The notes beneath the pieces were generated by a model. That model did not search any database. It had not been told where the DNA came from and saw nothing but the letters and a program-made list of their open reading frames with translations. This document shows positions 2,759 to 64,000 of a DNA stretch of 64,000 nt, piece by piece (within the stretch, counting starts at the first letter, position 1; every line of letters starts with the position of its first letter). The DNA comes from a virus (lineage: Duplodnaviria > Caudoviricetes), in IMG/VR virus record IMGVR_UViG_3300047564_001818. One strand, 5' to 3'. The position numbers and the translations under genes were made by a program.

Positions 2759-2792
2759 AGTTGCCCTCTTGCTTCGTTCACATCGTGTTTAT

Positions 2793-37418: not shown

Positions 37419-40400
37419 TTAGACTACGCCGCCTGCATCTATGCTGCTAATGCCTCCATAGTTAGAATCAGGTTGGCCGCCATCTAAGTTGCCAAATGAT
37501 CCTGCTGCTGTACTAGATATAACCAATGCTTTAGGATTACTGCTGGTATCAGTTGTAAGAATAATATTATTGCCCGCAACAATTTCTAAAGTATCTAAAC
37601 CTATAGCAATTAAATCTTCTTCGCCATCTACTTTGATAGTTTTGAAGGTGCTGTTCATACCTATTTTAACTGAGCCCGACCCTAGATCTGTTACGTCAAA
37701 CCCGCTATCAGTGTCAAATCTTATAGTTTCAACATTAAGAACAGTGAGTTGTCCTATGTTGTTGTCGCTGTCTATAGTGCCCACAGTTACAGTAGCACCG
37801 CTGCCTGCTTCACCCTTACTGCCAGTGAAACCAATTTCACCTTGTATACCTTGGCTACCGGTGTAACCAATATCACCCCGACTACCGGTGTATCCGATTG
37901 CCGCAGCTTCACCCGGTATGCCTTGTGAACCCACAAAGCCTGTATCACCTTGTGAACCTGTATAACCAAATTCACCTTGACTACCGGTAAATCCAGTAAA
38001 TCCTCTGCTGCCAGTAAATCCAGTTATACCCTGTGAGCCAACAAAGCCTGTATCGCCCTGTGAACCAGTGTATCCAATTGAACCTGTATAACCCTGTTCG
38101 CCTTGTGAACCTACAAAGCCTGTATCACCCTGTGAACCTACAAATCCAACCGATCCTGTAAATCCATTTGAACCTGTGTAACCCGTGTCACCCTGACTAC
38201 CCGTGTAACCTTGAACACCCTGACTACCGGTATATCCAATAGAACCAGTATATCCTATGTCACCTTGACTACCAGTATAACCTTGATCACCTTGACTACC
38301 AGTATAACCAATTTCACCTCTGCTACCTGTGTAACCTTGATCACCTTGACTACCTGTGTAACCTTGATCACCCTGACTACCCGTGTAACCTTGATCACCT
38401 TGACTACCCGTGTAACCTTGATCACCTTGAGATCCCACAAAACCTGTGTCGCCTTGACTACCTGTGTAACCTTGATCACCTTGGCTACCGGTGTATCCAA
38501 TTGAACCAGTGTAACCAATATCACCTTGTGATCCTACAAAGCCTGTATTGCCTTGTGAGCCAGTGTAACCTTGATCACCTTGTGATCCTACAAAGCCTGT
38601 ATTGCCTTGGCTACCTGTAAATCCAACTTCACCTCGACTTCCTGTAAATCCAACTTCACCTCGACTACCGGTATAACCTAGCTCACCTATATTTCTTACA
38701 ATAAAAGTTCCTACCATCGATCCATGGAATTGGCAAATATAGTACAGTATGTTAGGTGCATCCAGCGGCACTGTAAATGTTATTATACCAGAATCTATAC
38801 CATTATTCAGTACGCCATTTGTATATGCATTATTTGTTCCAGTGGTTTGACTTGTTTTAATCCAAAATGGATGTCCTGGTGCGTTAATATTAAAGTAATA
38901 AGTAGTACCTCTTGCTAGAGTAATTGTAGGATTGTTGCTACCTAGAATTGTATAAGCACTAGCACCACTATTAGAAACTGTGTAAGTTACTCCACCAATT
39001 ATACCTTGTGAACCTACAAAGCCTGTATCGCCTCTACTGCCAGTAAAGCCTTGACTACCATTAAATCCAATAGGTCCTTGACTACCTGTAAAACCAAGGT
39101 CACCTCTACTACCTACAAAGCCGCCGCTGCCTCTACTACCTGTAAATCCTACACCCTGGCTACCAGTGTAACCTTGATCACCTCTAGTACCAATATCACC
39201 TTTGCTGCCAGTAAAGCCTCGACTACCAGTAAATCCTACTAATCCCTGAATACCCGGGAAACCTTGTGAACCTGCAAATCCTCTACTACCTGTAAATCCA
39301 GTATCACCTTGATTACCTTGATTACCTTGATTACCTTGAGATCCAGTAAACCCTCTACTGCCAGTATATCCTAAGAATCCTTGTTCACCTTGACTACCAG
39401 TAAAGCCAGTGTCTCCACGGCTACCAGTATAACCATCAGGATCTCCCTTGTCACCTTTTGATCCAGTAAAGCCGATAGATCCTGTGTAACCAATTGCTGC
39501 TGCTTCACCTGGTATACCCTGTGAACCAACAAATCCAGTTAATCCTCTACTGCCTGTAAATCCAGTATCACCTTGTATACCTTGATCACCTTGCTCGCCC
39601 TGACTACCAGTGAAACCAGTACTGCCCTCACTACCAGTGTAACCCAATGCAGCAAACTCACCCGGTATACCTTGAAGACCTTGCGATCCAGTGAATCCTC
39701 TGCTACCATTAAATCCAGTGTCGCCTTGCGAACCAACGTATCCTGTGTCGCCTTGAAGCCCTTGTGATCCAGTATAACCTTGAAGACCTTGGCTACCTGT
39801 AAAACCAGTGTCGCCACGGCTTCCGTCATAACCGGTTACACCCTGACTACCAGTAAAGCCGATAGATCCTGTGTAACCAACGTCACCCTGCGAACCTGTA
39901 TAACCCAATGCAGCAAACTCACCCGGTATACCTTGGCTACCAGTAAAACCAGTGTCGCCTTGTGATCCTACAAAACCAGTGTCGCCTTGTGATCCTGTGT
40001 ATCCTATAAATGCAGCTTCACCTGGTATACCTTGTGGACCTTGTGAACCAGTAAAACCAATTGGTCCTATTTCACCTTGATCACCTGTATTACCTTTTGA
40101 TCCAGTAAAGCCGATAGATCCTGTATAGCCTATTGGGCCTATTTCGCCAGTGTCACCTTGGCTACCAGTATAACCAAGTTCACCTCTACTACCAGTATAA
40201 CCCGTGTCGCCTTGACTGCCCGTAAACCCTAGTTCACCCTGTGACCCTGTAAGTCCTACGGCAGCAAACTCACCTGGTATACCTTGTGAACCAGTATAAC
40301 CCTGTTCACCTTGTGTTCCTTGGTCACCTTTGCTGCCTACAAAACCAGTGTCACCTCTACTGCCAGTAAAGCCTCGACTACCAGTAAATCCAATAGGTCC

Positions 40401-49643: not shown

Positions 49644-50843
49644 ATGATAAACTTAGATCCATTTCAATTGCTGATAGATCAGCTGAAAACTGAAGGCAAG
49701 TACCGAGTGTTCAACGACATAGTTCGCGAGCGTGGTGAATTTCCACGGGCCATTTGGTACGGTCCATACGCAATTAAAAATATCGTAAACTGGTGCTCCA
49801 ACGATTATTTGGGAATGGGTCAACACAGAGTGGTAATTGATGCGATGCATACTGCGCTTGATCAAACGGGTGCAGGCAGCGGAGGCACTAGAAACATAGG
49901 CGGCACAAGTCATTATCACGTTGCACTGGAACACGAGCTTGCCAATCTCCATAACAAGAACAGTGCTCTATTGTTTTCCAGTGCTTATGTCGCAAATGAA
50001 TGGAGTCTGATTGCTCTAAGCCAAATCGTTCCCAACATTGTGTTTTTGAGTGATAGTAAAAATCACGCAAGCCTAATACAGGGTATCCGCCACAGTGGTG
50101 CAGCCAAAGTGATTTGGCAACACAACGATATGAGCGATCTAGCTGCTAAACTGGCCCAGGTCGTCGCACAAAACCAAACTCCCTGCATAGTGTTTGAGTC
50201 TGTGTATAGCATGGACGGCGATGTAAGCCTAATAGCAGACATTTGCGATCTTGCCCAGCGTTACGGTGCTATAACCTATATTGATGAAGTCCATGCCGTG
50301 GGATTGTATGGCCAGCGTGGAGCAGGGTATCTAGAGCATCTAGGTATTCAAGATAGAGTAGATATAGTCAACGGCACGCTGGGCAAGGCCTATGGCGTTA
50401 CAGGCGGTTATATAGCAGCGGAACGGGTAGTCATAGACGCAATCCGCTTGGTGGCCAGTGGGTTTATTTTCACAACTTCGGTGTCGCCAGTGCTTTGTGC
50501 AGGTGCGTTGTCCTCAATAAAGTATTTAAAAGTTCACAACGACCTTCGTGTTCAGCATCAGGCTCAGGCACTCAAGTTTAAAACTCGATTGCAAGAAGCT
50601 GGCATAGAAGTTTTCGATAAAGCCTGTACTCATATCGTGCCCGTGATGATACGTGACGCTGTACGATGCAAAGCCATTTCTGATAGATTGTTAGATGAAC
50701 ACGGCATCTATGTGCAGAGCATCAACTATCCAACTGTGGCTGTAGGTGAGGAGCGATTGCGTTTTGCGCCAACGCCCTTACACACAGACGCTATGATAGA
50801 CGACTGTGTGCGAGCTCTTAGAAAGGTAATGAATGAAATTTAA
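49644..50843 (+). CDS. hemA: 5-aminolevulinate synthase (PLP, Shemin/C4 pathway)
   Basis: [62 protein letters not shown]. Confidence 0.92.
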
Positions 50844-51249
50844 ACAGTACGCCTACATGGCCTTGGGATTGTTCTGCGTGGGCATGGCCTACATAGGCAT
50901 CATAGTTCCAGGCATACCCTTTTCAATATTTCTAGTCATAGCAGCATGGGCTTTTGCTAAGAGTTCACCTAGACTACACCGTTGGTTGTACAATCATCCT
51001 TGGTTTGGTAGTTTCTTGACCAACTGGACAGAGAGGCGAGTGTTCCCGACTAAGGGCAAGTATGCTATGATACTGGTCATGGCATCTAGCCTAGCATTTC
51101 TTTGGTTCACCACTGAGAATGTCAAAGCTGTGCTGTGGAGCGGTGGGTTCATGCTGCTGGTTGCACTGTGGGCATGGCGTTACCCCGGCAGCTTAGAAGA
51201 ATACCAGCGCCGTGTAGACGCTGGTAAAAGGATCGCTTGGATCAAGTAA
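50833..51249 (+). CDS. ybaN: YbaN/DUF454 inner membrane protein
   Basis: GIIVPGIP...[21 protein letters not shown]. Confidence 0.8.
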
Positions 51250-51777
51250 TTAGGCTGCGTCAATATCCAACCACTGATACCAGCTGGGGTGACGCACTTC
51301 AAAAGGCAATTGCTTGCGCTTTCTAACCAGTTCCCAATAGCCTGGCGTGTAGGGTTTGTATCTAGGACGCATGATGCCCATGCTGTTGCCTTTGGAAGCG
51401 TTGCAGGGCGCACAGGCAGTGAGGATGTTTTCCCAGTTGGTCTTACCACCACGTGAAATCGGAATATAGTGATCCAATGTGGCAGTGCTTTTGGTAACTG
51501 AGCAACCACAGTAGGCACAGTGATACTGATCACGCAGATACACATTGCTCTTTGAGAAGCGAACGCCTGTCTTGCCACGCATGTAGTCTTTGAGCATGAT
51601 CACAGCAGGCACACGAGTTTCCCAAGAGGGGCTACGCACAGTCCAATCGTCGTACCATTCAATTACATTGCACTTGTCGTGGTACATATAGAGAACAGCT
51701 TCTTTCCACTGAATAGCTGAAAGCGGTAAAAAACTAACTGGTTGTGCGTCTGCGTTAAGTAACAGCGTGTCGCTCAC
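51250..51777 (-). CDS. HNH endonuclease
   Basis: LLLNAD, RDQYHCAYCG, TLDHYIPISRGG, ACAPCNASKG. Confidence 0.88.
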   Translation of the reverse strand: MSDTLLLNADAQPVSFLPLSAIQWKEAVLYMYHDKCNVIEWYDDWTVRSPSWETRVPAVIMLKDYMRGKTGVRFSKSNVYLRDQYHCAYCGCSVTKSTATLDHYIPISRGGKTNWENILTACAPCNASKGNSMGIMRPRYKPYTPGYWELVRKRKQLPFEVRHPSWYQWLDIDAA

Positions 51778-51862
51778 GATGTGTCCTTTCTGTGTTCATA
51801 TTTAGTTCACGGGTTGATCCCATGTTTATAATAGCTTGAGATTGAACTGTGTCAACCTTTTT

Positions 51863-52198
51863 CTAGAGAGCGGCCTTCTCTTCAAAGGGTGCTAGGCCTG
51901 CGCCTATGCCCACTACACAGGCCACGTGGTCCCAGGGAAACTCAATCACTATGGTGTAGGTTTCTGTTTGAGGATTCATATAGATTTTCCAAACACCATC
52001 TGCAAACTGTTGGTCGGCTTGCTGCATCATTCCTGGACCACCCACAAAGGGTATTTCATCAGTAGCTTGTACATAGTCTCTTACTGCGGCAGTGCTGGCA
52101 CAATCACTCAACAACAACATGGGCACACTCTGTGCCCATGCTGGTGAGGAGATTGTTAATAAAGACAACACCAGTGTACAAATTCTAAGCATCAGCAA
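51863..52198 (-). CDS. secreted/periplasmic hypothetical protein
   Basis: signal peptide ending AWA. Confidence 0.6.
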   Translation of the reverse strand: MLMLRICTLVLSLLTISSPAWAQSVPMLLLSDCASTAAVRDYVQATDEIPFVGGPGMMQQADQQFADGVWKIYMNPQTETYTIVIEFPWDHVACVVGIGAGLAPFEEKAAL

Positions 52199-52225
52199 TC
52201 TCCTAGATATACTAGTAGTTATCTC

Positions 52226-52813
52226 TTAGAAATAGCTGCGCCAAAAGCCTGAACTAACAGCTTCCAGTGCTAGGTCATACTGACGTTCTGGTTCTGCTGT
52301 GATCAACTCAGTGTCAGGCTGAGTCAGCAACAACCAAGTGGGACGTTCAGCAGTGAGTTCACGTTCTAGTGAGCGTGGTGGCCATGCTGTGATACCCAGT
52401 ATGTATCTGTAGTTGTGAGGAGTGTTGCCTGCCACAGCCTTTTCCAACATGTGATAGTCCGATGATATTGACCATTCGCTGTTGATCTGCATGGTATTGG
52501 CACTGAACCAAGCATTGTCATGCAGCATGATCAGCGCACTTCTGTTGTAGTCGCCACCTCTGTATACAGGTTGATCTTCTGCACAGTCATGGCCTTTGGA
52601 AGCTGCTAGTTCTCTAAAAGTTACAGTGAGCGGTGAGTTGAGCTGTAGAGCCACTGTTGAATAAGCTGTGTGTTCTGTAACAAAACAAACACGACGGTGT
52701 TCGCCCCAACGTGGATGACTGATTAAGATATCTCCAGGCTCTACCAATACGTCTCCTTCAACTCCAATCCGGAAGGTCGCCGCCATACTTGGCGCCTTTG
52801 AGCTTCTTGCCAC
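52226..52813 (-). CDS. YqgE/AlgH (DUF179) family protein
   Basis: GDILISHP, VYRGG, MLH, LGITAW..SLERE pattern. Confidence 0.65.
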   Translation of the reverse strand: MARSSKAPSMAATFRIGVEGDVLVEPGDILISHPRWGEHRRVCFVTEHTAYSTVALQLNSPLTVTFRELAASKGHDCAEDQPVYRGGDYNRSALIMLHDNAWFSANTMQINSEWSISSDYHMLEKAVAGNTPHNYRYILGITAWPPRSLERELTAERPTWLLLTQPDTELITAEPERQYDLALEAVSSGFWRSYF

Positions 52814-53006
52814 CCACTTTGATTCTCTTCTTGCCTATCTTGTGACTCTTGTTGCCTTCACGACGACGATAGCCCTGACTCTTGCACGACGCCAGCGCAC
52901 TGGCACCAATTGCTGAATCAGGCTTTGAACTTTTGCAGAGACTGGCAGTGGCCTGCCAATCCACTATGTCCTGTTCACGACCTTCTATAAGTTCCTCAAC
53001 TCTCAT
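52758..53006 (-). CDS. small basic late protein
   Basis: MRVEELIEG start; late box 53012-53018. Confidence 0.65.
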   Translation of the reverse strand: MRVEELIEGREQDIVDWQATASLCKSSKPDSAIGASALASCKSQGYRRREGNKSHKIGKKRIKVGGKKLKGAKYGGDLPDWS

Positions 53007-53020
53007 ACAGTTATTTAGCA

Positions 53021-53233
53021 CTAGCGATATCGGTCAGCACCTGTTTCTTCAGCAAAATCCTCTACCAGCGCAAAGGTCAGAGCCTTGCGTGCTCCTCGTG
53101 TGGTGTTGAGTACGATCTCTCCTGTGCGCTCATGATACTCAATCTTTGTGATCTCCGCAGGCTGTCTGTTTGGGCCTACAAGAATAGTTTGCCCCAACTC
53201 TAGATTGAGGCTGATGTTACGCAGTGTACTCAT
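53021..53233 (-). CDS. hypothetical late protein
   Basis: GGGAG RBS, late box 53255-53261. Confidence 0.65.
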   Translation of the reverse strand: MSTLRNISLNLELGQTILVGPNRQPAEITKIEYHERTGEIVLNTTRGARKALTFALVEDFAEETGADRYR

Positions 53234-53303
53234 GGTGGTTCTCCCTTGTGAAAATATTTATCGATAGGCGAAACCACACTAAGTAAAAACAAAAGGAAGC
53301 ACT

Positions 53304-53582
53304 ATGAACCTAGAACAACTTGAACCGGGCAAGAGCTATGCCTGCAGATTTCGTACAGTCACATTCCTAGACAGCGAAGGCCAGCCTGTGCAGGCAAATC
53401 TCAGCATAGGCGCTGCACATCCAGGCACACCCGGCACCTACAGCAGTGTGGGCATCATACGAACCAGAGACCTAGCACAGTGTCGAGTAGAACTGATAGA
53501 CACACAGTCACACAGGACCTTTGTGGTCAGTACTGACAGTATATGGGACATAGACAGTGTAGAATGGGTTGACAACAGCTAA
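53304..53582 (+). CDS. hypothetical protein
   Basis: AAGGAAG RBS. Confidence 0.65.
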   Translation: MNLEQLEPGKSYACRFRTVTFLDSEGQPVQANLSIGAAHPGTPGTYSSVGIIRTRDLAQCRVELIDTQSHRTFVVSTDSIWDIDSVEWVDNS

Positions 53583-53603
53583 AACAGATGCTATAAATAA
53601 TGC

Positions 53604-53780
53604 ATGAAACTTAAACAAGAAATGAGCACTGTGCAGTATCTTGAAGCACGACTGTGGGATGCTATTCGAGAAATCGATGATCACAGAGACAGTTACACAG
53701 ACCGAGAACTGCGACGAGCATTTGAACAGATGACAGCGCTGAGCAACTACATCAAACGTAAAATTGTAAAAGGCAAGTAA
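53604..53780 (+). CDS. 58-aa hypothetical protein
   Basis: follows perfect TATAAATA 53592-53599; TAATG-coupled to next. Confidence 0.55.
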   Translation: MKLKQEMSTVQYLEARLWDAIREIDDHRDSYTDRELRRAFEQMTALSNYIKRKIVKGK

Positions 53781-54079
53781 TGGCACGCTACACCTACATA
53801 CACAGTGACCTGTGGAGTGAACGCAGCACAGTGCTGGAAGACGAATTGGCACAACTCACTGGGTACCTACACAGATCAGGATTGGACAGTGAGTTCGACC
53901 CAGACCTGCACAGTTATCGCACAGACACGGGTGACGTATGGCTGTTCCTTCCTGAGCTAACAGAACTGCAACTGTTTGCGATCACACTGATACTGAGCAG
54001 TAGCTCACTGGAGTTTGAGAACCGTCCTGTTCGTTTTGCACAGCCTCCAGAGATTGCACACGATGCGGAAGATCTATGA
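53780..54079 (+). CDS. hypothetical protein
   Basis: coupled ORF. Confidence 0.6.
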   Translation: MARYTYIHSDLWSERSTVLEDELAQLTGYLHRSGLDSEFDPDLHSYRTDTGDVWLFLPELTELQLFAITLILSSSSLEFENRPVRFAQPPEIAHDAEDL

Positions 54080-54347
54080 AATCGACAGTGTACAAGTATA
54101 CAGCCGCACTGGTGTATTCTCAAAACTGAGCCACAGAGCATATACACATAGACCACAACAACGGCCTTGGGATACCACACACCAAGAATGGATCAGTGCT
54201 GCTCTTACACCTGCACAACTGAGATTCATTGAACGGCAGGTTGTGACCTTTAGACCACATCCACGACACAGCCCCACAGTTGAACTGTTTATCTATGATG
54301 CTGATCTAACTGACAGAGACTGGTGTGTGATCAGACTGCTGTTCTAA
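54063..54347 (+). CDS. hypothetical protein
   Basis: MRKIYEIDSV start overlapping upstream gene. Confidence 0.55.
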   Translation: MRKIYEIDSVQVYSRTGVFSKLSHRAYTHRPQQRPWDTTHQEWISAALTPAQLRFIERQVVTFRPHPRHSPTVELFIYDADLTDRDWCVIRLLF

Positions 54348-54356
54348 AGACTGTGC

Positions 54357-54570
54357 ATAGGCCCCGCAAGCCGGATACCTATAGGCCCCGCTGTTAAGTG
54401 CTATACACAGCTATAATGATTACCAGCACACACTGAGTCAGTACTGCACAAGCTGTGATTAGATTATTTCTACGATCACTGTTCATACACATACTTATAG
54501 CATAGGCCCCGCTGTTAAGGTTTAAGCGCACAGCGCAATATGCGTAACTGTATAGGCCCCGCTGTTAAGG
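54357..54570 (+). repeat. direct repeats ATAGGCCCCGCTGTTAAG (3 full + 1 partial)
   Basis: copies at 54357 (partial), 54381, 54502, 54552. Confidence 0.9.
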
Positions 54571-54802
54571 TTACGGCTACGGGTCATGTTTGAGGTCAGT
54601 GAGCGCTAGCTGTGCAACACTGTGAACTAGATTGCGACATGCACCGCACTGTGGCACTGTGTTCAGCACACGAAAGATCAACTCAGACTGTGCAGACTGT
54701 AACTGAACAGCACAGTGTTGCACAGCACTCGCAGTGAGATTGTGACACACGCATACACGCATATGTGTATTTACTGTAGGGCGTAGTAAAAAAGATCTGC
54801 AA

Positions 54803-54852
54803 AAAGATGAAAAAGTATTTGAACTATAAAGATGAAAAAGTATTTGAACTAT
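54803..54852 (+). repeat. 25-bp tandem duplication
   Basis: AAAGATGAAAAAGTATTTGAACTAT x2. Confidence 0.9.
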
Positions 54853-55001
54853 GCCTGCCTCAACCTCGATCAATCTCTGCAAATTTGCACATAAACCGTT
54901 GAGAAGCTTGGCAAATCTGCACACTGAGCTCACGATGGGCCCGTCAAAACACCGGTTTTAGGGCTATAAAACACCCCTAGCGCCGCGTTAAAACCATTCG
55001 A

Positions 55002-55370
55002 TTTCAATGGTTTATACGATCTAGCTCATCCTAGATCTACACTGTGAGCACAGGCTCGATTCTGCCAGCAAGATCAATGACTTAGCATAAGAAGTTCAAC
55101 TGACCAATACACTATATACTTCAATGACTTAGTGGGCACAGTTCATTCAGAGGTCTCAGATTCGATTCTGCCAGCAAGATCAATCACTTAGCACACACAG
55201 TAGATACACAGCAAGATCAATGACTTAGCAGCTACACTAGGTTCTGGTGCTAAGTGATTGATACTATTGGCTTTCTCGCATCAATAGCTTACACAGTGAG
55301 GTTGAACCAATGGTGGTACTTGTAGTCGTTTGATATCGTTGAGCTCTTTGCTACTGATAAGTCATTGATA
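55002..55370. promoter_or_regulatory. cluster of IHF-consensus-like boxes (WATCAA-N4-TTR)
   Basis: plus: 55072, 55120, 55178, 55215; minus: 55251, 55358; further copies 55757 and 63023. Confidence 0.6.
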
Positions 55371-55469
55371 TTGCTGTGTTCTTTTGGTGTTGGTGGCGGG
55401 GCGACGGTGTCGTTGCGTGTCGTGCGAGGGGTGTAAGGCAAAGTTTACAGGTGCAGTGGGAGGGAGATA

Positions 55470-55612
55470 GTTTAACATTAAACCATTCCTGCGGGGTAGT
55501 TTAACGTTAAACCATTTTGGGCGAGATTGTTTAGTGTTAAACCATTTTGAGGGAGACTGTTTAGTGTTAAACTATACAACCTGCGGCCAAGACTGTTTAG
55601 TCATTAAACCAT
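55470..55612. repeat. five palindromic iteron-like repeats GTTTA-N4/5-TAAAC, ~30 bp period
   Basis: starts 55470, 55499, 55529, 55559, 55595; copy 2 is the perfect palindrome GTTTAACGTTAAAC. Confidence 0.85.
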
Positions 55613-55847
55613 AGGTTCAGGGCTCCGTGCCCTCCCGTCTACCGCTCCTGGCTATCGCCTTCTCGCTAACCTCACTTACAGTATAGCACCTGTGCAGGAG
55701 TTTGCAAGAGAATGTATTTCAATGTTTTCAAGGGGTTAGGAAATAAATTTATTTTGTAAGTCATTGATCTACAAGGAAAGTTTTTGGTTGTGCTCGTGTG
55801 TAGATGTGCTATTGTATACGAGTAGGGCAACACAAGAGGGAACGAAG

Positions 55848-56147
55848 ATGGGATACTTTCTTTACGATCGGCACAACACTCGCATAGTCAGCAAGGAGTA
55901 CAAGACTCATGCTGCGGCACAGGCAGAACTTACTCGTCGTCGTAAGGCTGCTGCGGGTGAATGGGGTGTGCTTCACGCAGAAGACGATCCGCTGTTCTTG
56001 TTGGGCATTGCAGAGAAAGAGTACTACTTCCGTCACATTGAGCGCTCTGTGACTCGTGTTAACTTGATGACGGGCGCGGAGTACCGTGAGAGCGTGAACA
56101 CGCCTTTGGCTTGCTCGCCTGCTTCAGAAACCTACTGGAGCCAGTGA
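55848..56147 (+). CDS. early hypothetical protein
   Basis: cassette gene; VNLMTG...CSPASETYWS. Confidence 0.8.
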   Translation: MGYFLYDRHNTRIVSKEYKTHAAAQAELTRRRKAAAGEWGVLHAEDDPLFLLGIAEKEYYFRHIERSVTRVNLMTGAEYRESVNTPLACSPASETYWSQ

Positions 56148-56219
56148 TTAGAGGTTGACAAGCCCTACTCCCTGTGCTATATATATGTGGAGTAGGGCAA
56201 CACAACAGAGGGCGACACA

Positions 56220-56375
56220 ATGAATCCAGAAATTGAGTCCATGCTGCAATTGACTGTTGAGCAATTGCTAAACGAGGATGGTGTAGGATGCGATCCTGCG
56301 GCTTTGGCTGCGGCACTGCGCGAGTTTGCGGAAATGATTGAAGCAGACATTGAGGCTGGCGCTTACGCAGAATAA
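56220..56375 (+). CDS. 51-aa acidic early protein
   Basis: own promoter/leader cassette. Confidence 0.7.
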   Translation: MNPEIESMLQLTVEQLLNEDGVGCDPAALAAALREFAEMIEADIEAGAYAE

Positions 56376-56437
56376 CTGTTGACACAGCCTTGCAGATGTG
56401 CTATAACTTACACATAGGGCAACAAGAGGGAACTGAG

Positions 56438-56629
56438 ATGGAAAATTTGGCATTCTACTCTAAGTATGACTTTGTCAAACTGCTTCGTCAGAAGCGCGGC
56501 AAAGACTATACCCTTGGCTGGTTGGAGATGGCATATGCTATGCCGCCCACCACTGAGGAGTATGAGCAGGAGATGATCCGCAAGGAGATTCCCGTTCTGC
56601 AGGCGCTGCCGGACTACGACGGCGTCTAA
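56438..56629 (+). CDS. early hypothetical protein
   Basis: cassette gene. Confidence 0.75.
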   Translation: MENLAFYSKYDFVKLLRQKRGKDYTLGWLEMAYAMPPTTEEYEQEMIRKEIPVLQALPDYDGV

Positions 56630-56700
56630 GGGGTTGACAAGCTTCAAGGCTTGTGCTATAACTAACATATAGAGCAACACAGTGTAGAGGGATACACACA

Positions 56701-57114
56701 ATGGGAACTCGTTCAACTATCGCAATTGAAAACGCAGACGGCACTGTCACTGGCATCTACTGCCACTGGGACGGCTACCTGAGCCACAATGGGCAAATCC
56801 TGCAAGACCACTATACTGACGAAGCCCGGGTGCGTGAGTTGATTGCTCTGGGCCACATCAGTTCGCTTGGTGCTGAGATTGGCACTGCCCATGACTTTGA
56901 TGCGGCTCCGCGTGGCGAGTGCAATGCCTACGGGCGTGATCGCGGCGAGCGTGATGTTGATGCTTATACTGAGCACAACTGGCGTCAGTACTGTGCTGAG
57001 CACGGACAGGAATACGACTACCTGTTCACTCCTGGGAAGGGCTGGCTGGTCCGCACCTACAACGGCATCTACGACCTTGCTCGTGCATTGGCAATCGAAA
57101 CCGAAGAAGCCTAA
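56701..57114 (+). CDS. early hypothetical protein (MGTRS...IYCHWDGY type)
   Basis: cassette gene. Confidence 0.85.
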   Translation: MGTRSTIAIENADGTVTGIYCHWDGYLSHNGQILQDHYTDEARVRELIALGHISSLGAEIGTAHDFDAAPRGECNAYGRDRGERDVDAYTEHNWRQYCAEHGQEYDYLFTPGKGWLVRTYNGIYDLARALAIETEEA

Positions 57115-57186
57115 GGCAGAAAGTGGTTGACACAGCCCTGCAGATGTGCTATTGTATATGAGTAGGGCAACACAAGAGGGACTGAG

Positions 57187-57426
57187 ATGTACAAGATCTA
57201 TGGCGACTATGGTTACACCAGCGAATGCCTGCTGCACACAGCCGACACTCGTTCAGAAGCCCTGCGCTGGGCAGACGACTATATCGCAGACGACTTTGGC
57301 GGCTATGCTGTGATTGAGGTTGCGGTTCACCTGAGCAATGGCGAATACAGCACCATCCATACCTACCGTGCAGAAGACTACGAGTACGAAGGCGATGACG
57401 ATTTTGCACTCTTGGAGGACTTTTAA
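57187..57426 (+). CDS. acidic early protein
   Basis: cassette gene. Confidence 0.75.
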   Translation: MYKIYGDYGYTSECLLHTADTRSEALRWADDYIADDFGGYAVIEVAVHLSNGEYSTIHTYRAEDYEYEGDDDFALLEDF

Positions 57427-57427
57427 G

Positions 57428-57583
57428 ATGCTCTACTATGTGATGTGGGGCGTTGAGATCATCGCTGTATGCACTCGACCAGAAGATGCTCATGCAATGG
57501 CTGGCTTTGATTACAAGACCAAAAAAACCTACACTGTGGTAGCGAAAATGGTTGACAACACTGTAGAAGGTGCTATTGTATAA
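57428..57583 (+). CDS. 51-aa early protein running through next promoter
   Basis: GGAGG RBS; ends MVDNTVEGAIV. Confidence 0.55.
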   Translation: MLYYVMWGVEIIAVCTRPEDAHAMAGFDYKTKKTYTVVAKMVDNTVEGAIV

Positions 57584-57620
57584 GAGTAGGGCAACGCAAT
57601 AGCAGAGAGGGACACACGCT

Positions 57621-58025
57621 ATGGCATACGTTTCGCAAGAAGACAAAGCTAAACTGACTCCGGCGATCAAGGCTGTGCTGGCTAAGTATGGCATGAAGGG
57701 CACGATTGCTGTGCGTCATCACAGCACTTTGGTAGTCACTGTCAAGAGCGGTGCTATCGACTTCGGCGGCGACAACATTGATGTGAACGAGTATTGGATC
57801 GACCAGCACTACGAGGGCAAGGCTCGTAAGTTCCTCAACGAACTGCACAAGGCTATGATGGGACCGGACTGGTTCTGCGAAGACGACGCGATGACTGACT
57901 ACTTCCACCGCAGCCACTACTGCTCCATCCGCATCGGCAACTGGGGTCGTCCGTATGTGTTCATGGGACGCAGCAAGGACGGTATGGTAAACGGTGTGGC
58001 AGAAGAAGCCTACACCTTTGCCTAA
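57621..58025 (+). CDS. early hypothetical protein (MAYVSQE type)
   Basis: cassette gene. Confidence 0.85.
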   Translation: MAYVSQEDKAKLTPAIKAVLAKYGMKGTIAVRHHSTLVVTVKSGAIDFGGDNIDVNEYWIDQHYEGKARKFLNELHKAMMGPDWFCEDDAMTDYFHRSHYCSIRIGNWGRPYVFMGRSKDGMVNGVAEEAYTFA

Positions 58026-58098
58026 ATAATGGTTGACAGCACACCACTGTCGTGCTATAACTAACACATAGGGCAACACTGCTAGAGGAGCACAGCAG

Positions 58099-58500
58099 AT
58101 GGCATACGGTGATTTTGTTACGTCAGTTGGCGAAACGGTTGGCATCGTGCGTCAGCACCGCCACGGCACAATCTTGATGAGCCGCTTTGGCACTGTTACC
58201 AAGATCAACGGACACGGCCACATCTACGTCCAAAGCGAAGACAAGGAGTATCGCTTCACTCGCCGCGGCTATGCCTACAAGGACGACTATGGTCCTGGCT
58301 TGATGCACGCCGCTAAACTGCGGATGATCCAAGAGAGTGAGACTCGTCGCAAGGAGCAGGTGCGGATTGCTCGTGCTATGGAGCAGGAACTCAAGGAAGG
58401 CTACTCCTACTCGGGCCGCTTCTTCCCCACCGCAGAGCGTATTGCTGCTCTAAAAAATCTGCTTGCAGACTTGGAGAAAGTGGTTGACAGCACGATATGA
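58099..58500 (+). CDS. early hypothetical protein
   Basis: cassette gene. Confidence 0.8.
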   Translation: MAYGDFVTSVGETVGIVRQHRHGTILMSRFGTVTKINGHGHIYVQSEDKEYRFTRRGYAYKDDYGPGLMHAAKLRMIQESETRRKEQVRIARAMEQELKEGYSYSGRFFPTAERIAALKNLLADLEKVVDSTI

Positions 58501-58542
58501 TCGTGCTATAACTATAGAGTAGACAGCAACAAGAGGGCAAAC

Positions 58543-58821
58543 ATGATGCTGAATGTGAATGACACTGTTCGTGCTTACAGCGGCCGGCCTGGCTGCATGT
58601 GCGGCTGCAATGGCACCTACAACGAAGGCGAGCGGGCTCGCAAGATGGCACTGACTGCGCTGCTGAAGAACCCTGCGGTGCGCTTGCAGACTTGGAAGCC
58701 CTCCGGCGGCGATGCTGGTTGCTTGTATGTGGAAACTGCAACTCGCAACCGTGTGCTGTATCTGACTGAAGAGGGTGCTGCGAAGTTGGCTGCACAGTTC
58801 CCTGAAATGGTTGACAAGTAA
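58543..58821 (+). CDS. early hypothetical protein (GCMCGC motif)
   Basis: cassette gene. Confidence 0.8.
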   Translation: MMLNVNDTVRAYSGRPGCMCGCNGTYNEGERARKMALTALLKNPAVRLQTWKPSGGDAGCLYVETATRNRVLYLTEEGAAKLAAQFPEMVDK

Positions 58822-58868
58822 GAACGTTCGTGCTATAACTTACACACAACGAGGCAATGGAGGGTAAC

Positions 58869-59420
58869 ATGCCGAACTGGTGCTCAAACTCAATCACTAT
58901 CACTGGTCCTGTGGAGAAGATTGCTGCGCTGTGGACCGAGGCTTCCACAGCCGGCGAACACAACGCTCTGCTCAATGCTCTGTGTCCGATGCCTAAGGAA
59001 CTCTTAGAAGGTGAAGCATGGTATGGCTGGCGTGTGGCCCACTGGGGAACCAAGTGGGACATTGACATGCAAGGTCTCGAGTTTGAAGAGTTCTCGGACG
59101 GCACGGCTGCCGTCACAGGTTGGGCAGACAGTGCATGGAGCCCGCCCGTTGATGCGTTCCAGGCTTATAGCAATGAGAATCCTGATGTGATGATGGAACT
59201 CAAATACTTCGAGCCCGGCATGGGGTTTGTAGGTGTATGGGACAACGAAGGTGGAGATGCCTATTGGGAAGGTGTTGACGAGTTGCTGGACACCACAGAG
59301 GAAGAAGACGCTGTGCTGCATGAACTGCTGGAATACTTTGACGTGGCCAGTTGGTTTGAGTCTGACGACGAGAACCTCGAGATTGATCTTGACGGCGGTG
59401 TGAGTGCGACGAACGAATAA
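58869..59420 (+). CDS. DUF1281/YubB-like ferredoxin-fold protein
   Basis: MPNWCSN, HWGTKWD, SAWSPP, YFEPGMGFVG. Confidence 0.75.
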   Translation: MPNWCSNSITITGPVEKIAALWTEASTAGEHNALLNALCPMPKELLEGEAWYGWRVAHWGTKWDIDMQGLEFEEFSDGTAAVTGWADSAWSPPVDAFQAYSNENPDVMMELKYFEPGMGFVGVWDNEGGDAYWEGVDELLDTTEEEDAVLHELLEYFDVASWFESDDENLEIDLDGGVSATNE

Positions 59421-59490
59421 TAATGGTTGACACGGCTCTACTCATGTGCTATTGTATATGAGTAGGGCAACGCTGCTAGAGGAGCACACG

Positions 59491-59775
59491 ATGGCACGTA
59501 AGACGATCGAAGTTGGCAAGGTTCTTAAGATTGCGAATAACTTCCTTGCTGCGAAGCATACCACTGCTGATGAGCGCGAGAGTGTGTGTGCTGTGATGGA
59601 AGCTATCTTGTTTGAGACTGATAACTATCGCGGCTTTGCTTACCTGCCCAAAGAGAACTACGCCCACGAGACGGGCTTTGATCACGATGGCACTCGTCGT
59701 CGTTACTTCGTCAGCGGCACTATCGATGCTGACTACGAAGCAGAAGACCGCAACATCAACAAGATCCGGGCATAA
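59491..59775 (+). CDS. early hypothetical protein
   Basis: cassette gene. Confidence 0.75.
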   Translation: MARKTIEVGKVLKIANNFLAAKHTTADERESVCAVMEAILFETDNYRGFAYLPKENYAHETGFDHDGTRRRYFVSGTIDADYEAEDRNINKIRA

Positions 59776-59785
59776 GGAGAACGAC

Positions 59786-59950
59786 ATGAACCCGTTGGCT
59801 TTTTTTGCGATGGTGGGCTTTGTTGTATTACTGATCGTCAGCACCGCAGCTTATACCTTTTCTAAATGCGGCTGGTATACTTTTGCACTGGGCAACGGTG
59901 CTGCGATGGCTGCCGTCACTGGCATGTGTGATAAAATTAATGGAGAATAG
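59786..59950 (+). CDS. small membrane protein, paralog 1
   Basis: MNPLAFFAMVGF...AYTFSKC...TGMCDKINGE. Confidence 0.75.
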   Translation: MNPLAFFAMVGFVVLLIVSTAAYTFSKCGWYTFALGNGAAMAAVTGMCDKINGE

Positions 59951-59951
59951 C

Positions 59952-60119
59952 ATGGACCCTTTGGCTTTTTTTGCAATGGTGGGCTTTGTACTGTTGTTGG
60001 GGATTGGCACCATAGCTTACACCTTTTCCAAATGCGACCAGTATGCCTTTGCACTGGGCAAGGCGGCGGGGGTGTCGGTGCTGATCACTGGCATGTGCGA
60101 TAAAATCAATGGAGAATAA
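59952..60119 (+). CDS. small membrane protein, paralog 2
   Basis: MDPLAFFAMVGF...AYTFSKC...TGMCDKINGE. Confidence 0.75.
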   Translation: MDPLAFFAMVGFVLLLGIGTIAYTFSKCDQYAFALGKAAGVSVLITGMCDKINGE

Positions 60120-60120
60120 C

Positions 60121-60234
60121 ATGGACTGGACCATCGAGGAATATCTTGAGTTTGAACGGCACTTGCTAGAACAAGCAGAAGCGGACGAAGACGAAATTCC
60201 GGTTGACGAACCTGTCTACTGGTGCTATAACTAA
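60121..60234 (+). CDS. 37-aa acidic peptide running through next promoter
   Basis: GGAG RBS; ends PVDEPVYWCYN. Confidence 0.5.
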   Translation: MDWTIEEYLEFERHLLEQAEADEDEIPVDEPVYWCYN

Positions 60235-60262
60235 CACATAGGGCAACACAAAGGACGCTGAG

Positions 60263-60544
60263 ATGAATAACTTCGCAACTGCTGTCACCGCAATCCAAAA
60301 GATGAACAACGACGAACTGAACGCTGTGGTTCGTGCGATCAAACTGCGCCGCACCTACCTTGCTCGTCAGAGTGCTAACACTTTCCAAGTTGGCGACCGT
60401 GTGAGCTTTGCTGCTCGCGGTATGCAGGTGCTGGGCACTGTAACCAAAGTCAACATCAAGACCATCCAAGTCAAGCAGGACAATGCCTACACCACGTGGA
60501 AGGTACACGCAAGTCTTTTGCATCCTGTCAAAGAAATGGCTTGA
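60263..60544 (+). CDS. early hypothetical protein with SH3/KOW-like domain
   Basis: FQVGDRVSF...GTVTKVNIKTIQV. Confidence 0.75.
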   Translation: MNNFATAVTAIQKMNNDELNAVVRAIKLRRTYLARQSANTFQVGDRVSFAARGMQVLGTVTKVNIKTIQVKQDNAYTTWKVHASLLHPVKEMA

Positions 60545-60597
60545 CAGGTTGCTGTATACGTGCTATAACTAACACATAGAAACACAAGAGGGACACG

Positions 60598-60786
60598 ATG
60601 AAAGATTACATGACACTGATCGCAATCATTGACCGGCTAGGCTATATTGCAGAACTTCCGTCAGCTAAGATCCGCCAAGCACTGGATCAATACATTGCTC
60701 AACTGGAAACAGAAGTTCGTCAAATTGATGAAGAGACGGAACGTCAATGTCGAATTGATGACATGTTCGAGAACGTGCCAGTGTAA
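60598..60786 (+). CDS. early hypothetical protein
   Basis: cassette gene. Confidence 0.7.
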   Translation: MKDYMTLIAIIDRLGYIAELPSAKIRQALDQYIAQLETEVRQIDEETERQCRIDDMFENVPV

Positions 60787-60795
60787 ATAGACAAC

Positions 60796-60871
60796 GCCCG
60801 GTTAGCCCAAAGGTAGAGGCAACAGACTTAAAATCTGTCAAGCGTCGGTTCGACCCCGACACTGGGTACCA
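60796..60871 (+). tRNA. tRNA-Leu(UAA), short variable loop
   Basis: cloverleaf, ACAGA-CTTAAAA-TCTGT, TTCG loop, encoded CCA. Confidence 0.88.
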
Positions 60872-60876
60872 AACAT

Positions 60877-60953
60877 GGGGGATTAGCTCAATTGGTTAGA
60901 GCGACGGTCTCATAAACCGCAGGTTATCGGTTCAAGTCCGGTATCCCCTACCA
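60877..60953 (+). tRNA. tRNA with CAU anticodon (elongator Met or Ile2)
   Basis: cloverleaf, CTCATAA loop, paired 1:72, encoded CCA. Confidence 0.88.
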
Positions 60954-60959
60954 AATATT

Positions 60960-61036
<77 letters not shown>

Positions 61037-61039
61037 AGT

Positions 61040-61097
61040 TAGCAGGAGTTGAGATTGCGCTGTGTTGCCCTATGCTGCGTTGGATCTCCTCCTGCTA
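61040..61097 (+). ncRNA. hairpin RNA with loop antisense to early-gene leader
   Basis: TAGCAGGAG/CTCCTGCTA + GAGAT/ATCTC + GCGC/GCGT stems; loop TGTGTTGCCCTATG. Confidence 0.7.
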
Positions 61098-61127
61098 CGC
61101 TGATAGAGTTTAACCAAGGAGAACACC

Positions 61128-61307
61128 ATGGCTATCTGTCCTAACTGTCATACACCAGACAAGAACTTCTTTGCGCCTGCTTGCCATGCTTGCAACGAAC
61201 AGATTCCTTTGATCCAGCAGATCATTGTTAGCTTGATCTTCTTGTCAGTCAAGGCAGTGTTTGTGATTGCGATGTTGTGGTTCCTTTTTGTTTATCTTCC
61301 AGGTTGA
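61128..61307 (+). CDS. 59-aa CxxC..CxxC zinc-ribbon + TM protein
   Basis: AAGGAG RBS; CPNC...CHAC; hydrophobic C-terminus. Confidence 0.7.
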   Translation: MAICPNCHTPDKNFFAPACHACNEQIPLIQQIIVSLIFLSVKAVFVIAMLWFLFVYLPG

Positions 61308-61358
61308 CAACTGCTGCGTAGAGTGTATACTGAACAAGTAATGAGCAAAGGGCACAAC

Positions 61359-62360
61359 ATGACTAACGTTACAATCATTGACGGCACGTACAAGATCCGC
61401 GGCGCTGACACTTCAGTAGCTGGTCTGACCTTTCCGTTGGTAGAACCGTTCCGTATGGGCAAGACTGGCGGCTATGTCACTGTGGATGGTTCAGCTGTGA
61501 ATGGCTTTCCGGCTCGCAACATCAAGATCCGTGTGAACAGTGAGCAGGACTACGAACTGCTAGAAGGCCCCGCTGTATACAACTCTAGAACAGAAACTGA
61601 TGCGGAGATTGTTGAGCGCATCCGTAGTCGCTTTGCTATGCTGGGCGAGATGACCAAGGCTGTGAAGAAGGGCGATGTACGTGCTATGATCGTATCAGGT
61701 CCTCCGGGTGTTGGCAAGAGCCACGGTGTTGAAGAAGTATTGGATCGATACAAGATGATGGAGACCATGGGCGGCAAGAAGACACACGAAGTGATCAAAG
61801 GCGCTATGAGCCCGATCGGACTGTACTGCAAGCTGTTCAAGATGAGCGAAGCTGGAAATGTGGTTGTGTTCGATGACTGTGACAGCATCTTCCAGGAAGA
61901 CCTAAGCTTGAACATCCTCAAAGCTGCACTAGACAGCAAGCAGAATCGTTGGATCCACTGGAACACTGACAGCTTCAAACTGCGCAACGAAGGTGTGCCT
62001 GACAAGTTCAAGTTTGAAGCTAGTGCAATCTTTATCACCAACTTGAAGTTCGACAAGGTCAAAGGCAAGCTTAGAGAACACCTAGAAGCATTGGAGTCAC
62101 GCTGCCACTACATGGATCTAACGATCGATACCGAACGTGATAAGATGCTGCGCATCCGGCAAGTGATTGAAGATGGTATGCTGGATGTGTACACACTGAG
62201 CGATGACATCAAAGAAGACATCATCGACTTCGTGGACATCAACAAGAGCCGACTGCGTGAACTGAGTCTGCGCAGTGTGCTCAAGGTAGCAGACCTGGCA
62301 GTAAGCTTTCCAGACCGCTGGCAGGACTTTGCTGAGAATACGGTGATGCGTCGAGCCTAG
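61359..62360 (+). CDS. AAA+ ATPase
   Basis: GPPGVGKS Walker A, VVFDDCD Walker B, FITN, SRC. Confidence 0.9.
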   Translation: MTNVTIIDGTYKIRGADTSVAGLTFPLVEPFRMGKTGGYVTVDGSAVNGFPARNIKIRVNSEQDYELLEGPAVYNSRTETDAEIVERIRSRFAMLGEMTKAVKKGDVRAMIVSGPPGVGKSHGVEEVLDRYKMMETMGGKKTHEVIKGAMSPIGLYCKLFKMSEAGNVVVFDDCDSIFQEDLSLNILKAALDSKQNRWIHWNTDSFKLRNEGVPDKFKFEASAIFITNLKFDKVKGKLREHLEALESRCHYMDLTIDTERDKMLRIRQVIEDGMLDVYTLSDDIKEDIIDFVDINKSRLRELSLRSVLKVADLAVSFPDRWQDFAENTVMRRA

Positions 62361-62375
62361 CTCCGCATGCCGTTG

Positions 62376-62550
62376 GGACAATGGACCGCCCTCGTCCATT
62401 GTCCACATGTGGACTGAGTGTGCCCTCGCTCAGTTCACGAAGGCCGAAGCAGCCGATAAGAGCTGTTCGGTAAGGCTGGTAGACGAGCCCTCACGCTCTG
62501 CCAGAACAGCCCGGAGTTGGCGTGCCCTCTGCCGCTCCGGGCTATTTTTT
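62376..62550 (+). ncRNA. four-hairpin RNA, each loop carrying GCCCUC, last hairpin an intrinsic terminator
   Basis: stems 62376-62404, 62411-62436, 62476-62504, 62508-62543 + T-run. Confidence 0.75.
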
Positions 62551-62614
62551 TGGTTGACAAGCCGTGCAGAAGGTGCTATTGTTAACACATAGGGCAACAC
62601 GGAAGGGCAAGAAG

Positions 62615-63025
62615 ATGTACACCTTTGATGAACAGATTGTATCCGATCTCCACAAAGACGCTCGTGGCTACCGCCCAGATGCATACTTTTGGGAAGAGTG
62701 GAGCCAAACCGGCGACGACACTCGCCAAGCTATGTGGGACAACCTGCTGCAGGAACTGGCCGCTGAGACAGCACGTCAACAGGACGCCTATGCTCGTGCA
62801 GAGATTGAGTTCCATCAGCGTGTGCAAGGCATGATGCTCTCAGGTGCCAAGGACGAACTGACTGCTATCCGTTGGATCCTCGAAGCCGAACAGTTCACCG
62901 AGAACGATTGGGCTTACGGTTCGGACTATGTGGCTTTCCACTTCAACTTGCCCTACAAAGGCCTATTTGATCAGCAGATCCAGACTGTCCTCAACGAGAT
63001 GGAGACCCAGGCTGACCTTGGCTAA
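62615..63025 (+). CDS. early hypothetical protein
   Basis: cassette gene; MYTFDEQIVSDLHKDARGYRP. Confidence 0.85.
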   Translation: MYTFDEQIVSDLHKDARGYRPDAYFWEEWSQTGDDTRQAMWDNLLQELAAETARQQDAYARAEIEFHQRVQGMMLSGAKDELTAIRWILEAEQFTENDWAYGSDYVAFHFNLPYKGLFDQQIQTVLNEMETQADLG

Positions 63026-63154
63026 GTTATTGATAACATTGACAAAAACTTTTTTGTAAGTGCTTGTTTTCTAACAAAACATTTCTCTTGCAATGTGCGC
63101 TGTATAGTGTATAACTGTATTTGTAAGCAACACAGCATATGCGAGGAGCACAAT

Positions 63155-63433
63155 ATGCAAAACACTGTAGCAAATACTAATTACGTTTTTGTAATGCTTG
63201 ATGACGCTACAAACGCAATTGTACTGCGTATTAATAAAACTGTTGACGTTTTTTGCAATAGTGCAAACGACATAATTGCTGCATTTAAACAATATAATAT
63301 TACGGACTGCGACACTATTATGGCGAGCAGCGACGTGGATTTTGCTACGGAGTTTGACTATGCGTACGACAGTGCAGTACACGACATGCTTGACGAAGCT
63401 TTTGACGCACTAAATTTTAAACAATACGTTTAA
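63155..63433 (+). CDS. early protein with no Pro/Gly/Trp (YC-free DNA)
   Basis: GAGGAG RBS, own promoter. Confidence 0.7.
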   Translation: MQNTVANTNYVFVMLDDATNAIVLRINKTVDVFCNSANDIIAAFKQYNITDCDTIMASSDVDFATEFDYAYDSAVHDMLDEAFDALNFKQYV

Positions 63434-63522
63434 AAAAACAGCAGCACACAGCACTTTTTACTTGACAAGTGCTGTGTGCTGTGCTATAAGTTACACATAG
63501 GGCAACACAAGAGGGACTGCAC

Positions 63523-63714
63523 ATGACACGCGAAGAACTGTTTGCTAATATTGCACAAATTGCTGCTGACGCATACGACAACACAGATGCTGACGAAGTG
63601 CAAAGCTGGGATGCATACGAAGCAGCAAAGCAGATTGTTGCTGCAATGCAAGCGTTTGGCTACGACATTGCAGACATGTTGGAGCAAATAGAGGAAGACG
63701 CAGACGAAGCGTAA
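63523..63714 (+). CDS. acidic early protein (YC-free DNA)
   Basis: cassette gene. Confidence 0.75.
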   Translation: MTREELFANIAQIAADAYDNTDADEVQSWDAYEAAKQIVAAMQAFGYDIADMLEQIEEDADEA

Positions 63715-63814
63715 CACAAAAAAAACAGCAGCGCACAGCAACTTAGGGGTTGACAGTTGCTGTGTGCTGTGCTATTGTTAACACATAGGGCAACACAACA
63801 CAAGAGGGACCTCA

Positions 63815-64000
63815 AGATGAATACCACAAAGCGCAACGCTCAGTTCGAAGCAGCCTTTGATCGAGTGATCGAAGCCCAGCTGTTGATGGAAGGTATTGCT
63901 GTTCTCACTGCTGACAGCCACGCAATGGACATTCAGGCACGCCTGCAGAAGATTGTCAAAGAGATGTGGCAGTTCAAAGGCAACGTTGCTCAAGGACGCA
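63815..64000 (+). CDS. early hypothetical protein, truncated by window end
   Basis: cassette leader then MNTTKRNAQF..., open to end. Confidence 0.65.

Follow-up and report, generated by a model that had tools for sequence, protein, structure and literature searches.

A multi-hairpin RNA in the 3' UTR of a phage AAA+ ATPase gene, with loops complementary to a clade-specific early ribosome-binding tag

Behind the AAA+ ATPase gene of an uncultured giant phage of freshwater metagenomic origin lies an array of hairpins that present GCCCUC in their loops, complementary to the G-rich ribosome-binding sites (RBSs) of early genes. The array recurs, with its loop core invariant, in 31 relatives, and in a sister clade both the loop and the ribosome-binding tag have changed and are again exact complements. 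Judging from sequence comparison, we read the array as a multivalent anti-RBS RNA within the 3' UTR of the ATPase mRNA, whose function would be to pair with early leaders, and put the probability of this reading at about 0.6. The outcome would probably be repression of early mRNAs, or early shut-off, a direction suggested by where the pairing falls. Throughout, the window denotes the whole 64,000-nt stretch of DNA that was analysed, to which cultured phages gave no match in a DNA similarity search.

The ATPase-array unit and its structure

The features on which the argument turns are all on the plus strand of the window:

55790..64000 (+): early island of promoter-leader-ORF cassettes with 5' element (A/G)UAGGGCAAC and RBS AGAGGG(A/C), the presumed targets
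61040..61097 (+): tRNA-trailer hairpin, 3 nt after tRNA-Arg, loop holding GUGUUGCCCUAUGC, antisense to the leader
61304..61331 (+): sigma70-type promoter of the ATPase-array unit, TTGACA-16 nt-TATACT, 11/12 consensus matches
61359..62360 (+): AAA+ ATPase gene, 333 aa, PHROG 1250, T4 NrdC.10-like
62353..62363 (+): H0, small hairpin GAGC/GCUC spanning the ATPase stop codon
62376..62404 (+): H1, perfect 11-bp stem, loop CGCCCUC, motif at 62388-62393
62411..62436 (+): H2, loop GUGCCCUC, motif at 62422-62427, U.G closing pair, covariance-model match of 30.9 bits, E 5.6e-7
about 62442..62472 (+): Hm, motif-less, stem GCAGC/GCUG, loop CGAUAAGA, between H2 and H3
62476..62504 (+): H3, 8-bp outer stem plus inner CG/CG, loop AGCCCUCA, motif at 62487-62492
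62508..62551 (+): H4, terminator hairpin AGCCCGGAG/CUCCGGGCU, motif at 62524-62529 in the apical loop, then T7

The ATPase is assigned to its family by PHROG 1250 (1e-78), with a weak match to Pfam AAA and with T4-like NrdC.10 homologues at ~34% identity; its nearest cultured homologues, at 41-43% identity, are those of PA5oct-like phages. The promoter type that drives the unit is also found upstream of the ATPase homologue in relatives, and between the end of the gene and the next promoter (62554) lie 190 nt of non-coding sequence. The array (62376-62551, plus strand) consists of four hairpins with a GCCCUC loop and a fifth without the motif, in the order H1-H2-Hm-H3-H4. The first-pass annotation, made from the letters alone, had described four stems with their loops and a T-run after the fourth; all four lie where it placed them and the T-run is the T7 at 62545-62551, Hm and H0 being the two hairpins that it missed. 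Hm is kept in part of the clade (L004, L007, L019, L037), and the loop of H0 carries GCCCUC too in several relatives. H4 has a G+C-rich outer stem of 9 bp (62508-62516/62535-62543), an inner GGC/GCC and a loop that holds GUGCCCUCU. Such a stem followed by a U-run marks it, like its counterparts in relatives, as an intrinsic (Rho-independent) terminator, the sole strong one of the early island.

The array is far more stably folded than its composition would give: RNAfold returns -100.6 kcal/mol, as against -74.5 +/- 4.7 for shuffled sequences (z = -5.6), and none of 200 shuffles equals it. The GCCCTC hexamer is not over-represented in the window, with 13 sites against 13.7 expected, and it is the placement of its copies that sets the array apart. 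Four of the 13 fall inside the array, spread over 142 nt of a single strand and all in loops; a scan of every site in the window found none of those outside the array in a stem longer than 5 bp. An open reading frame that runs across the array (62407-62592, 61 aa) was rejected as coding because the stems vary among relatives by compensatory pairs and not codon by codon. A wetland metatranscriptome with 6% of words gave contigs over 61157-61303 and 61434-61584 and none over 62320-62560, and is uninformative on expression of the array.

The ORFs of the surrounding early island are short, and most have a near-consensus sigma70 promoter of their own. The leaders in the window all begin with AUAGGGCAACAC, and a shared early leader, ACAUAGGGCAACAC, is found inside the island in 5 exact copies and 6 further plus-strand copies with 1-3 mismatches.

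Conservation and covariation in relatives

Relatives were gathered by a protein-guided search of IMG/VR together with two exact-word scans; many of the exact 15-16-letter matches that IMG/VR gave were due to chance and were filtered by context. Including that of the window, this gave 32 distinct arrays, each of them directly 3' of an AAA+ ATPase homologue (64-81% identity) and each with a terminator at its end. An array has 3-5 motif hairpins, and 106 of the 109 motifs lie in hairpin loops. The 6-nt core of the loop, GCCCUC within (U/A/C)GCCCUC(A/G), is invariant in 109/109, and the stems have turned over completely yet remain paired. Invariance of the core in the face of complete stem turnover points to selection on the loop. 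The first-pass annotation had counted loop conservation in homologues among the points on which its proposal depends, and here the arrays of all 31 relatives bear it out. The commonest loops are GUGCCCUC (28), CCGCCCUCA (18), UGCCCUC (8), AUGCCCUC (7) and AGCCCUC (7), and the base 5' of the motif is U in 50%, A in 28%, C in 21% and G in 0%. Under constrained folding, the array motifs have a median energy of -15.2 kcal/mol, as against -2.5 for 205 other GCCCTC sites from the same loci and -5.8 with shuffled flanks.

Covariation was assessed on 34 hairpins whose loops have 8 nt, aligned without gaps. Changes on both sides are seen at all 9 pairs, and the inner 4 bp, which show 3-4 pair types, are hardly ever unpaired. 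The covariation score of 0.657 compares with 0.22 for shuffles (0/500 of which reach 0.657) and with at most 0.18 for slid registers. In 24 of the 34 hairpins a U.G pair closes the loop; its counterpart on the opposite strand would be a C.A mismatch, which argues for the plus-strand RNA as the functional one.

A covariance model was built from the hairpins of GUGCCCUC type, the other loop types lying outside the model. Its single significant match in the window is H2, and H1 and H4 are only weak matches (E about 2-4), no better than the window background. In relatives of 116-275 kb the model matches the array and one tRNA-trailer hairpin (L012:1727-1752).

These same hairpins might be read as plain terminator or mRNA-stabilising structures, their loops alike through duplication and descent and their match to the RBSs a generic C-rich, anti-SD (anti-Shine-Dalgarno) resemblance. 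H4 is after all a genuine terminator, with no strong rival in the early island, and stacked 3' hairpins do stabilise mRNAs. Common descent would not, however, hold the loop core at 109/109 in stems that have turned over, nor carry the match past the CCUC/GAGG core into a non-canonical GC(A) in both partners, nor switch loop and tag jointly in a second clade (see below), and we regard this reading as very unlikely.

In the first search, ATPase homologues of about 62% identity or less were without such an array, and cmscan of positions 60000-64000 against Rfam, at E up to 10, gave no match on 62376-62551. PA5oct has no intergenic array 3' of its ATPase homologue, the gap being just 43 nt, and its four published ncRNAs are located elsewhere than behind that gene (PMC7318152). 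Clusters of GCCCTC in L074, L205, L210 and L225 were dismissed as chance occurrences in G+C-rich coding DNA of unrelated contigs. In one array-bearing contig, L002, a gene for a 201-aa GIY-YIG-type homing endonuclease (2189-2794, minus strand) sits exactly between the ATPase stop and the array, with a short duplicate of the ATPase 3' end upstream of the array; the near-identical contig L003 is without the insert.

Early tags and their coupled change with the loops

The target side was defined from 220 distinct early promoter-leader-ORF cassettes of array-bearing loci, taken from -20 to -3 of the start codon. The commonest 6-mers there are AGGGCA (126) and GAGGGC (122), which merge to GAGGGCA; its exact reverse complement is the loop UGCCCUC. 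This tag is present on about 60% of the early cassettes, and the spacing of its GAGGG to the start codon, 4-10 nt, implies that it serves as the Shine-Dalgarno (SD) element. The canonical 16S tail can pair with GAGG only, the GC(A) extension being matched by the phage loops alone. The base 3' of the tag is A in 75%, U in 21%, G in 3% and C in 1%, mirroring the base 5' of the loop motif. Late and structural genes have A+T-rich AGGA/GGAG ribosome-binding sites.

In the window, duplexes between loops and 5' UTRs average -9.0 to -11.6 kcal/mol over 22 early starts, as against -4.7 to -5.7 kcal/mol over 35 late ones (p about 1e-8); the canonical anti-SD gives -7.3 kcal/mol on the same 22 early UTRs. 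The RBS of the window is mostly GAGGGA, not GAGGGC, and loop-RBS pairing there is 5 bp, to which the 5' leader element adds a sixth; the seed also matches that element, UAGGGCAAC. The earlier claim that early RBSs here are chiefly GAGGG fits 12 of the 22 early starts; UAGGGCAAC, too, is found in most of the promoter-driven leaders. As a weaker observation, in array-bearing loci the tag is enclosed in the loop of a small hairpin with AUG in its 3' arm (e.g. 57590-57625) in 54% of cases, versus 27% with shuffled flanks; for a tag so placed, loop-loop kissing would be favoured.

In a 275-kb relative, the early island that surrounds the array spans 11 kb and takes in 14 of the 15 forward-strand GAGGGCA sites. 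Two places in the same genome, at 173.6 and 176.9 kb, have GAGGGCA pairs on the reverse strand; considered as extra arrays, these were rejected, being the RBSs of minus-strand genes. So strong a bias of orientation and position within the early island could also suit an element that acts at the DNA level, with GAGGGCA a duplex operator or a nuclease or methylase site and the array a cluster of inverted copies. A duplex site would not explain, however, why the inverted copies sit in loops on covarying stems with G.U pairs, nor why the tag keeps SD distance from start codons, and we find this reading scarcely credible.

The best partner of H2 is the ATPase leader itself, AAAGGGCACAAC, which pairs at 8/8 bp and -14.2 kcal/mol in the strongest duplex of the window; the proposed pairing of AGGGCACA in this leader with UGUGCCCU of H2 is that duplex. 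Array and ATPase belong to one transcription unit in 32/32 loci, and the loops might on these grounds act in cis only, binding the RBS of their own mRNA and limiting ATPase synthesis alone. There is a model for this in Staphylococcus aureus: the icaR mRNA has, in its 3' UTR, a C-rich motif that pairs with its own SD. That system has a single motif, a single target and cis action only, whereas the phage array is multi-loop, and a single RBS would not need 3-5 loops. Nor would autoregulation of one gene lead one to expect that about 60% of early cassettes are tagged and that tag and loop switch clade-wide, that an extra copy of the seed stands behind the tRNA cluster on another transcript, or that the hairpin of clade B is often behind a different gene, ~0.9 kb from the ATPase. 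We think it unlikely that the array works in this way alone.

The extra copy is the tRNA-trailer hairpin of the list above, which follows a conserved tRNA cluster (Met, Arg-UCU, Leu-UAA). In eight relatives (L004, L009, L012, L019, L164, L173, L176, L232) the homologous trailer loop carries CCGCCCUCA or GUGCCCUC. In the window it carries GUGUUGCCCUAUGC, a 14-nt sequence exactly antisense to the early leader GCAUAGGGCAACAC and the leader's sole minus-orientation copy. With a GCCCUC-type loop in relatives and a leader antisense here, the trailer loop tracks each phage's own leader or RBS, and so breaks the GCCCUC consensus in the window and keeps complementarity to the target, as RNA-RNA pairing would predict and a protein-binding motif would not. 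The trailer hairpin is probably a second source of anti-leader RNA, in which sense the suggestion that the array forms the second arm of one early system has held up.

The most telling evidence for pairing comes from loci in which both partners differ. A profile search added 80 ATPase loci at 49-76% identity, and the loops behind the ATPase and the 5-mers before start codons were listed independently of each other. Clade A loci in this set again combine GCCCU loops with GAGGG/AGGGC tags. In a second clade, B (L260-L291, L300, L316, L321, L327), the tags are AGGAG/GGAGC/GAGCG(A), i.e. GGAGCGA(A), and the hairpin loop AUUCGCUCC is the exact complement of the tag GGAGCGAA. The pair is UGCCCUC / GAGGGCA in clade A and UUCGCUCC / GGAGCGAA in clade B. 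Clade B hairpins either form a pair, one of the two being the terminator, directly behind the ATPase or follow the next gene, ~0.9 kb on. Clades A and B are sisters on the ATPase tree (support 100/99), and tags sort with loops as follows, counts which overstate independence since the loci are related and the rows are not independent events:

GCCCUC-hairpin loci: 28 loci, 215 cassettes, 134 A-tags, 6 B-tags
CGCUCC-hairpin loci: 27 loci, 152 cassettes, 0 A-tags, 86 B-tags
Loci with neither hairpin: 58 loci, 168 cassettes, 18 A-tags, 17 B-tags

As far as sequences can tell, then, loop and tag have switched together between clades A and B at least once, and the switch may have been a single evolutionary event. 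The idea with which the first-pass annotation began, a multivalent RNA with loops tuned to a non-canonical early RBS, draws support from the conserved array, from the GAGGGCA complement and from this switch of both partners. On a smaller scale, L015 has the RBS GAGGGAA and one loop changed to GUUCCCUC. In L024, a sister locus with an AGGAGCA tag, neither an array nor an anti-tag hairpin was found in the 24-kb contig, which is 7% complete. In a clade adjoining A on the tree (L269-L293), 11 ATPase loci are without GCCCUC or CGCUCC hairpins and have few recognisable sigma70 cassettes; they may hold a third loop/tag pair or none.

The coupled change also bears on whether the loops are read by a protein. 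As a scaffold or sponge, they would bind an RNA-binding protein of phage or host, perhaps the ATPase, with the same protein or a competitor reading the leaders. Identical loops on variable stems are the architecture of CsrB/RsmZ-type sponges, conservation does extend beyond the seed (the U.G closing pair, the H3 3' flank CACGCUCUGC that is conserved across relatives, and Hm), and the array stays linked to the ATPase gene while the genes downstream vary. There is precedent, too, in the CcsR RNAs of alphaproteobacteria, which originate in the DUF1127 (ccaF) gene's 3' UTR and are bound by the encoded CcaF1 (PMC8034643). Yet a reader of GCCCUC would not recognise the complement GAGGGC, and that both partners have switched in the sister clade and are exactly complementary there fits RNA-RNA pairing, not protein recognition, as does a trailer loop that departs from the consensus of the window's relatives yet stays complementary to its leader. 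The multiple GGA/ANGGA motifs in loops that mark CsrB, RsmY and RsmZ are absent, no loop containing GGA. The predicted fold of the ATPase, generic AAA+ with a beta-rich N-domain, has no recognisable RNA-binding domain and offers no functional clue. A protein sponge in place of pairing is, on balance, decidedly unlikely. Within the preferred reading as an anti-RBS RNA, the closing pair, the H3 flank and Hm are conserved features beyond the seed that pairing alone leaves unexplained. They allow for a protein partner, for which the ATPase is a candidate by analogy with CcaF1 and CcsR.

Proposed mechanism and known systems

The mechanism that we propose starts from an ATPase transcription unit ending in a structured RNA of ~200 nt, in which 3-5 copies of a C-rich seed of 6-8 nt, (U)GCCCUC, would be held in the loops of hairpins. 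The seed would pair with the clade-specific, G-rich tag GAGGGC(A), the SD element of most early genes, and would do so in trans on the remaining early mRNAs and perhaps in cis on the message of the ATPase. Loop pairing is predicted to mask the RBS better than the 16S anti-SD binds it, outcompeting a 4-bp SD/anti-SD contact, and early translation would be damped as a stable array RNA accumulates. Array RNA and targets are alike transcribed from early-type promoters, so stability or stoichiometry would have to set the timing. We infer that the array gives a stable or processed RNA, that it pairs in vivo and that the result is repressive. On this basis tag and anti-tag might constitute a private and evolvable translation code, by which a class of ~20 or more early mRNAs is switched off or handed over with host and late messages untouched; we would offer about even odds on this wider proposal.

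In architecture the closest known RNAs are cuckoo/CcsR (alpha-r14, RSs0680a-d) of alphaproteobacteria, with 2-4 adjacent hairpins, variable stems and a common loop motif CCUCCUCCC (PMC4615179). The phage array likewise has adjacent hairpins (3-5) on variable stems, one C-rich loop motif and a 3' UTR location. Its loops are GCCCUC (109/109) and not CCUCCUCCC, however, the Rfam model is not matched, and it lies behind an AAA+ ATPase gene and not behind DUF1127, the cuckoo/CcsR RNAs being cellular. They act on metabolic mRNAs of the host that have ordinary SDs, whereas the phage array would address the private tag of a whole temporal class. The likeness is one of analogy, and membership fails on loop motif, Rfam model and genomic context.

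Among phages, the nearest precedent is the c4 antisense RNA of P1 and P7 (RF01695), whose loops block the translation of a phage mRNA from their own operon by pairing with its RBS region. It has one target operon (icd/ant) and two loop-target pairs that differ in sequence, without a repeated seed or a class-wide tag, and the Rfam c4 model (RF01695) is without a match in the array region. The C-rich-loop sRNAs of Firmicutes (RNAIII hairpins 7/13/14, RsaE/RoxS) do use multivalent loops of UCCC type, which pair with the G-rich SDs of many mRNAs. They are cellular, their seed fits the canonical SD and specificity comes from the flanks, whereas in the phage seed and SD share a non-canonical extension.

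The nearest functional analogy is found in T4, in which RegB cuts GGAG in early SDs and RegA and the ribosome compete for about 30 mRNAs (PMC3014915). There, too, a whole class of early mRNAs is inactivated through the RBS; the agents are proteins, whereas the recognition module proposed here is RNA. Pfam searches for RegA and RegB gave no match in five partial relatives, the controls being without a match as well.

What ties the array to the anti-SD regulatory RNAs is a seed that lies in a loop and is complementary to the target RBS, together with a seed and target that change together between lineages. The searchable literature gave no description of the element under GCCCUC loops or phage anti-SD RNAs. 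The array is a new RNA family and a variation on the anti-SD sRNA theme. On the best-supported reading, what would be new is the combination of a private SD tag, shared by a whole class of genes, with a multivalent RNA that bears the cognate anti-tag, in at least two naturally evolved orthogonal pairs. If so, one small RNA would govern a complete temporal class of genes in a large phage via a custom Shine-Dalgarno tag, regulator and regulon would have co-evolved into those orthogonal pairs, and the array would be the first RNA-based counterpart of RegA and RegB, the early shut-off proteins of T4. The natural RBS/anti-RBS pairs would be usable in synthetic biology, and tag plus anti-tag would give a simple signature for early-gene calling in uncultured phage genomes.

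Other features of the window are recorded here in their own right. G+C content is 46-52% on the early side (50000-64000) versus 38-45% in the structural and late region (1-49000), which is encoded on the other strand. Just 5' of the first early promoter, at 55500-55610, are 3-4 direct repeats of ~30 nt with the core TGTTTAGTGTTAAACCATTTTG, possibly serving as an origin, as a terminus or in regulation. Two tandem paralogous ORFs (59786-60119; 54 and 55 aa) share a hydrophobic N-terminal half and a common C-terminal GMCDKINGE, and sit in an early operon whose RBSs are of the ordinary GGAG type. On the minus strand, among tail-fibre-like genes, one gene (37419-44891) encodes a protein of 2490 aa that contains 11 stretches of collagen repeats together with 9 He_PIG Ig domains.
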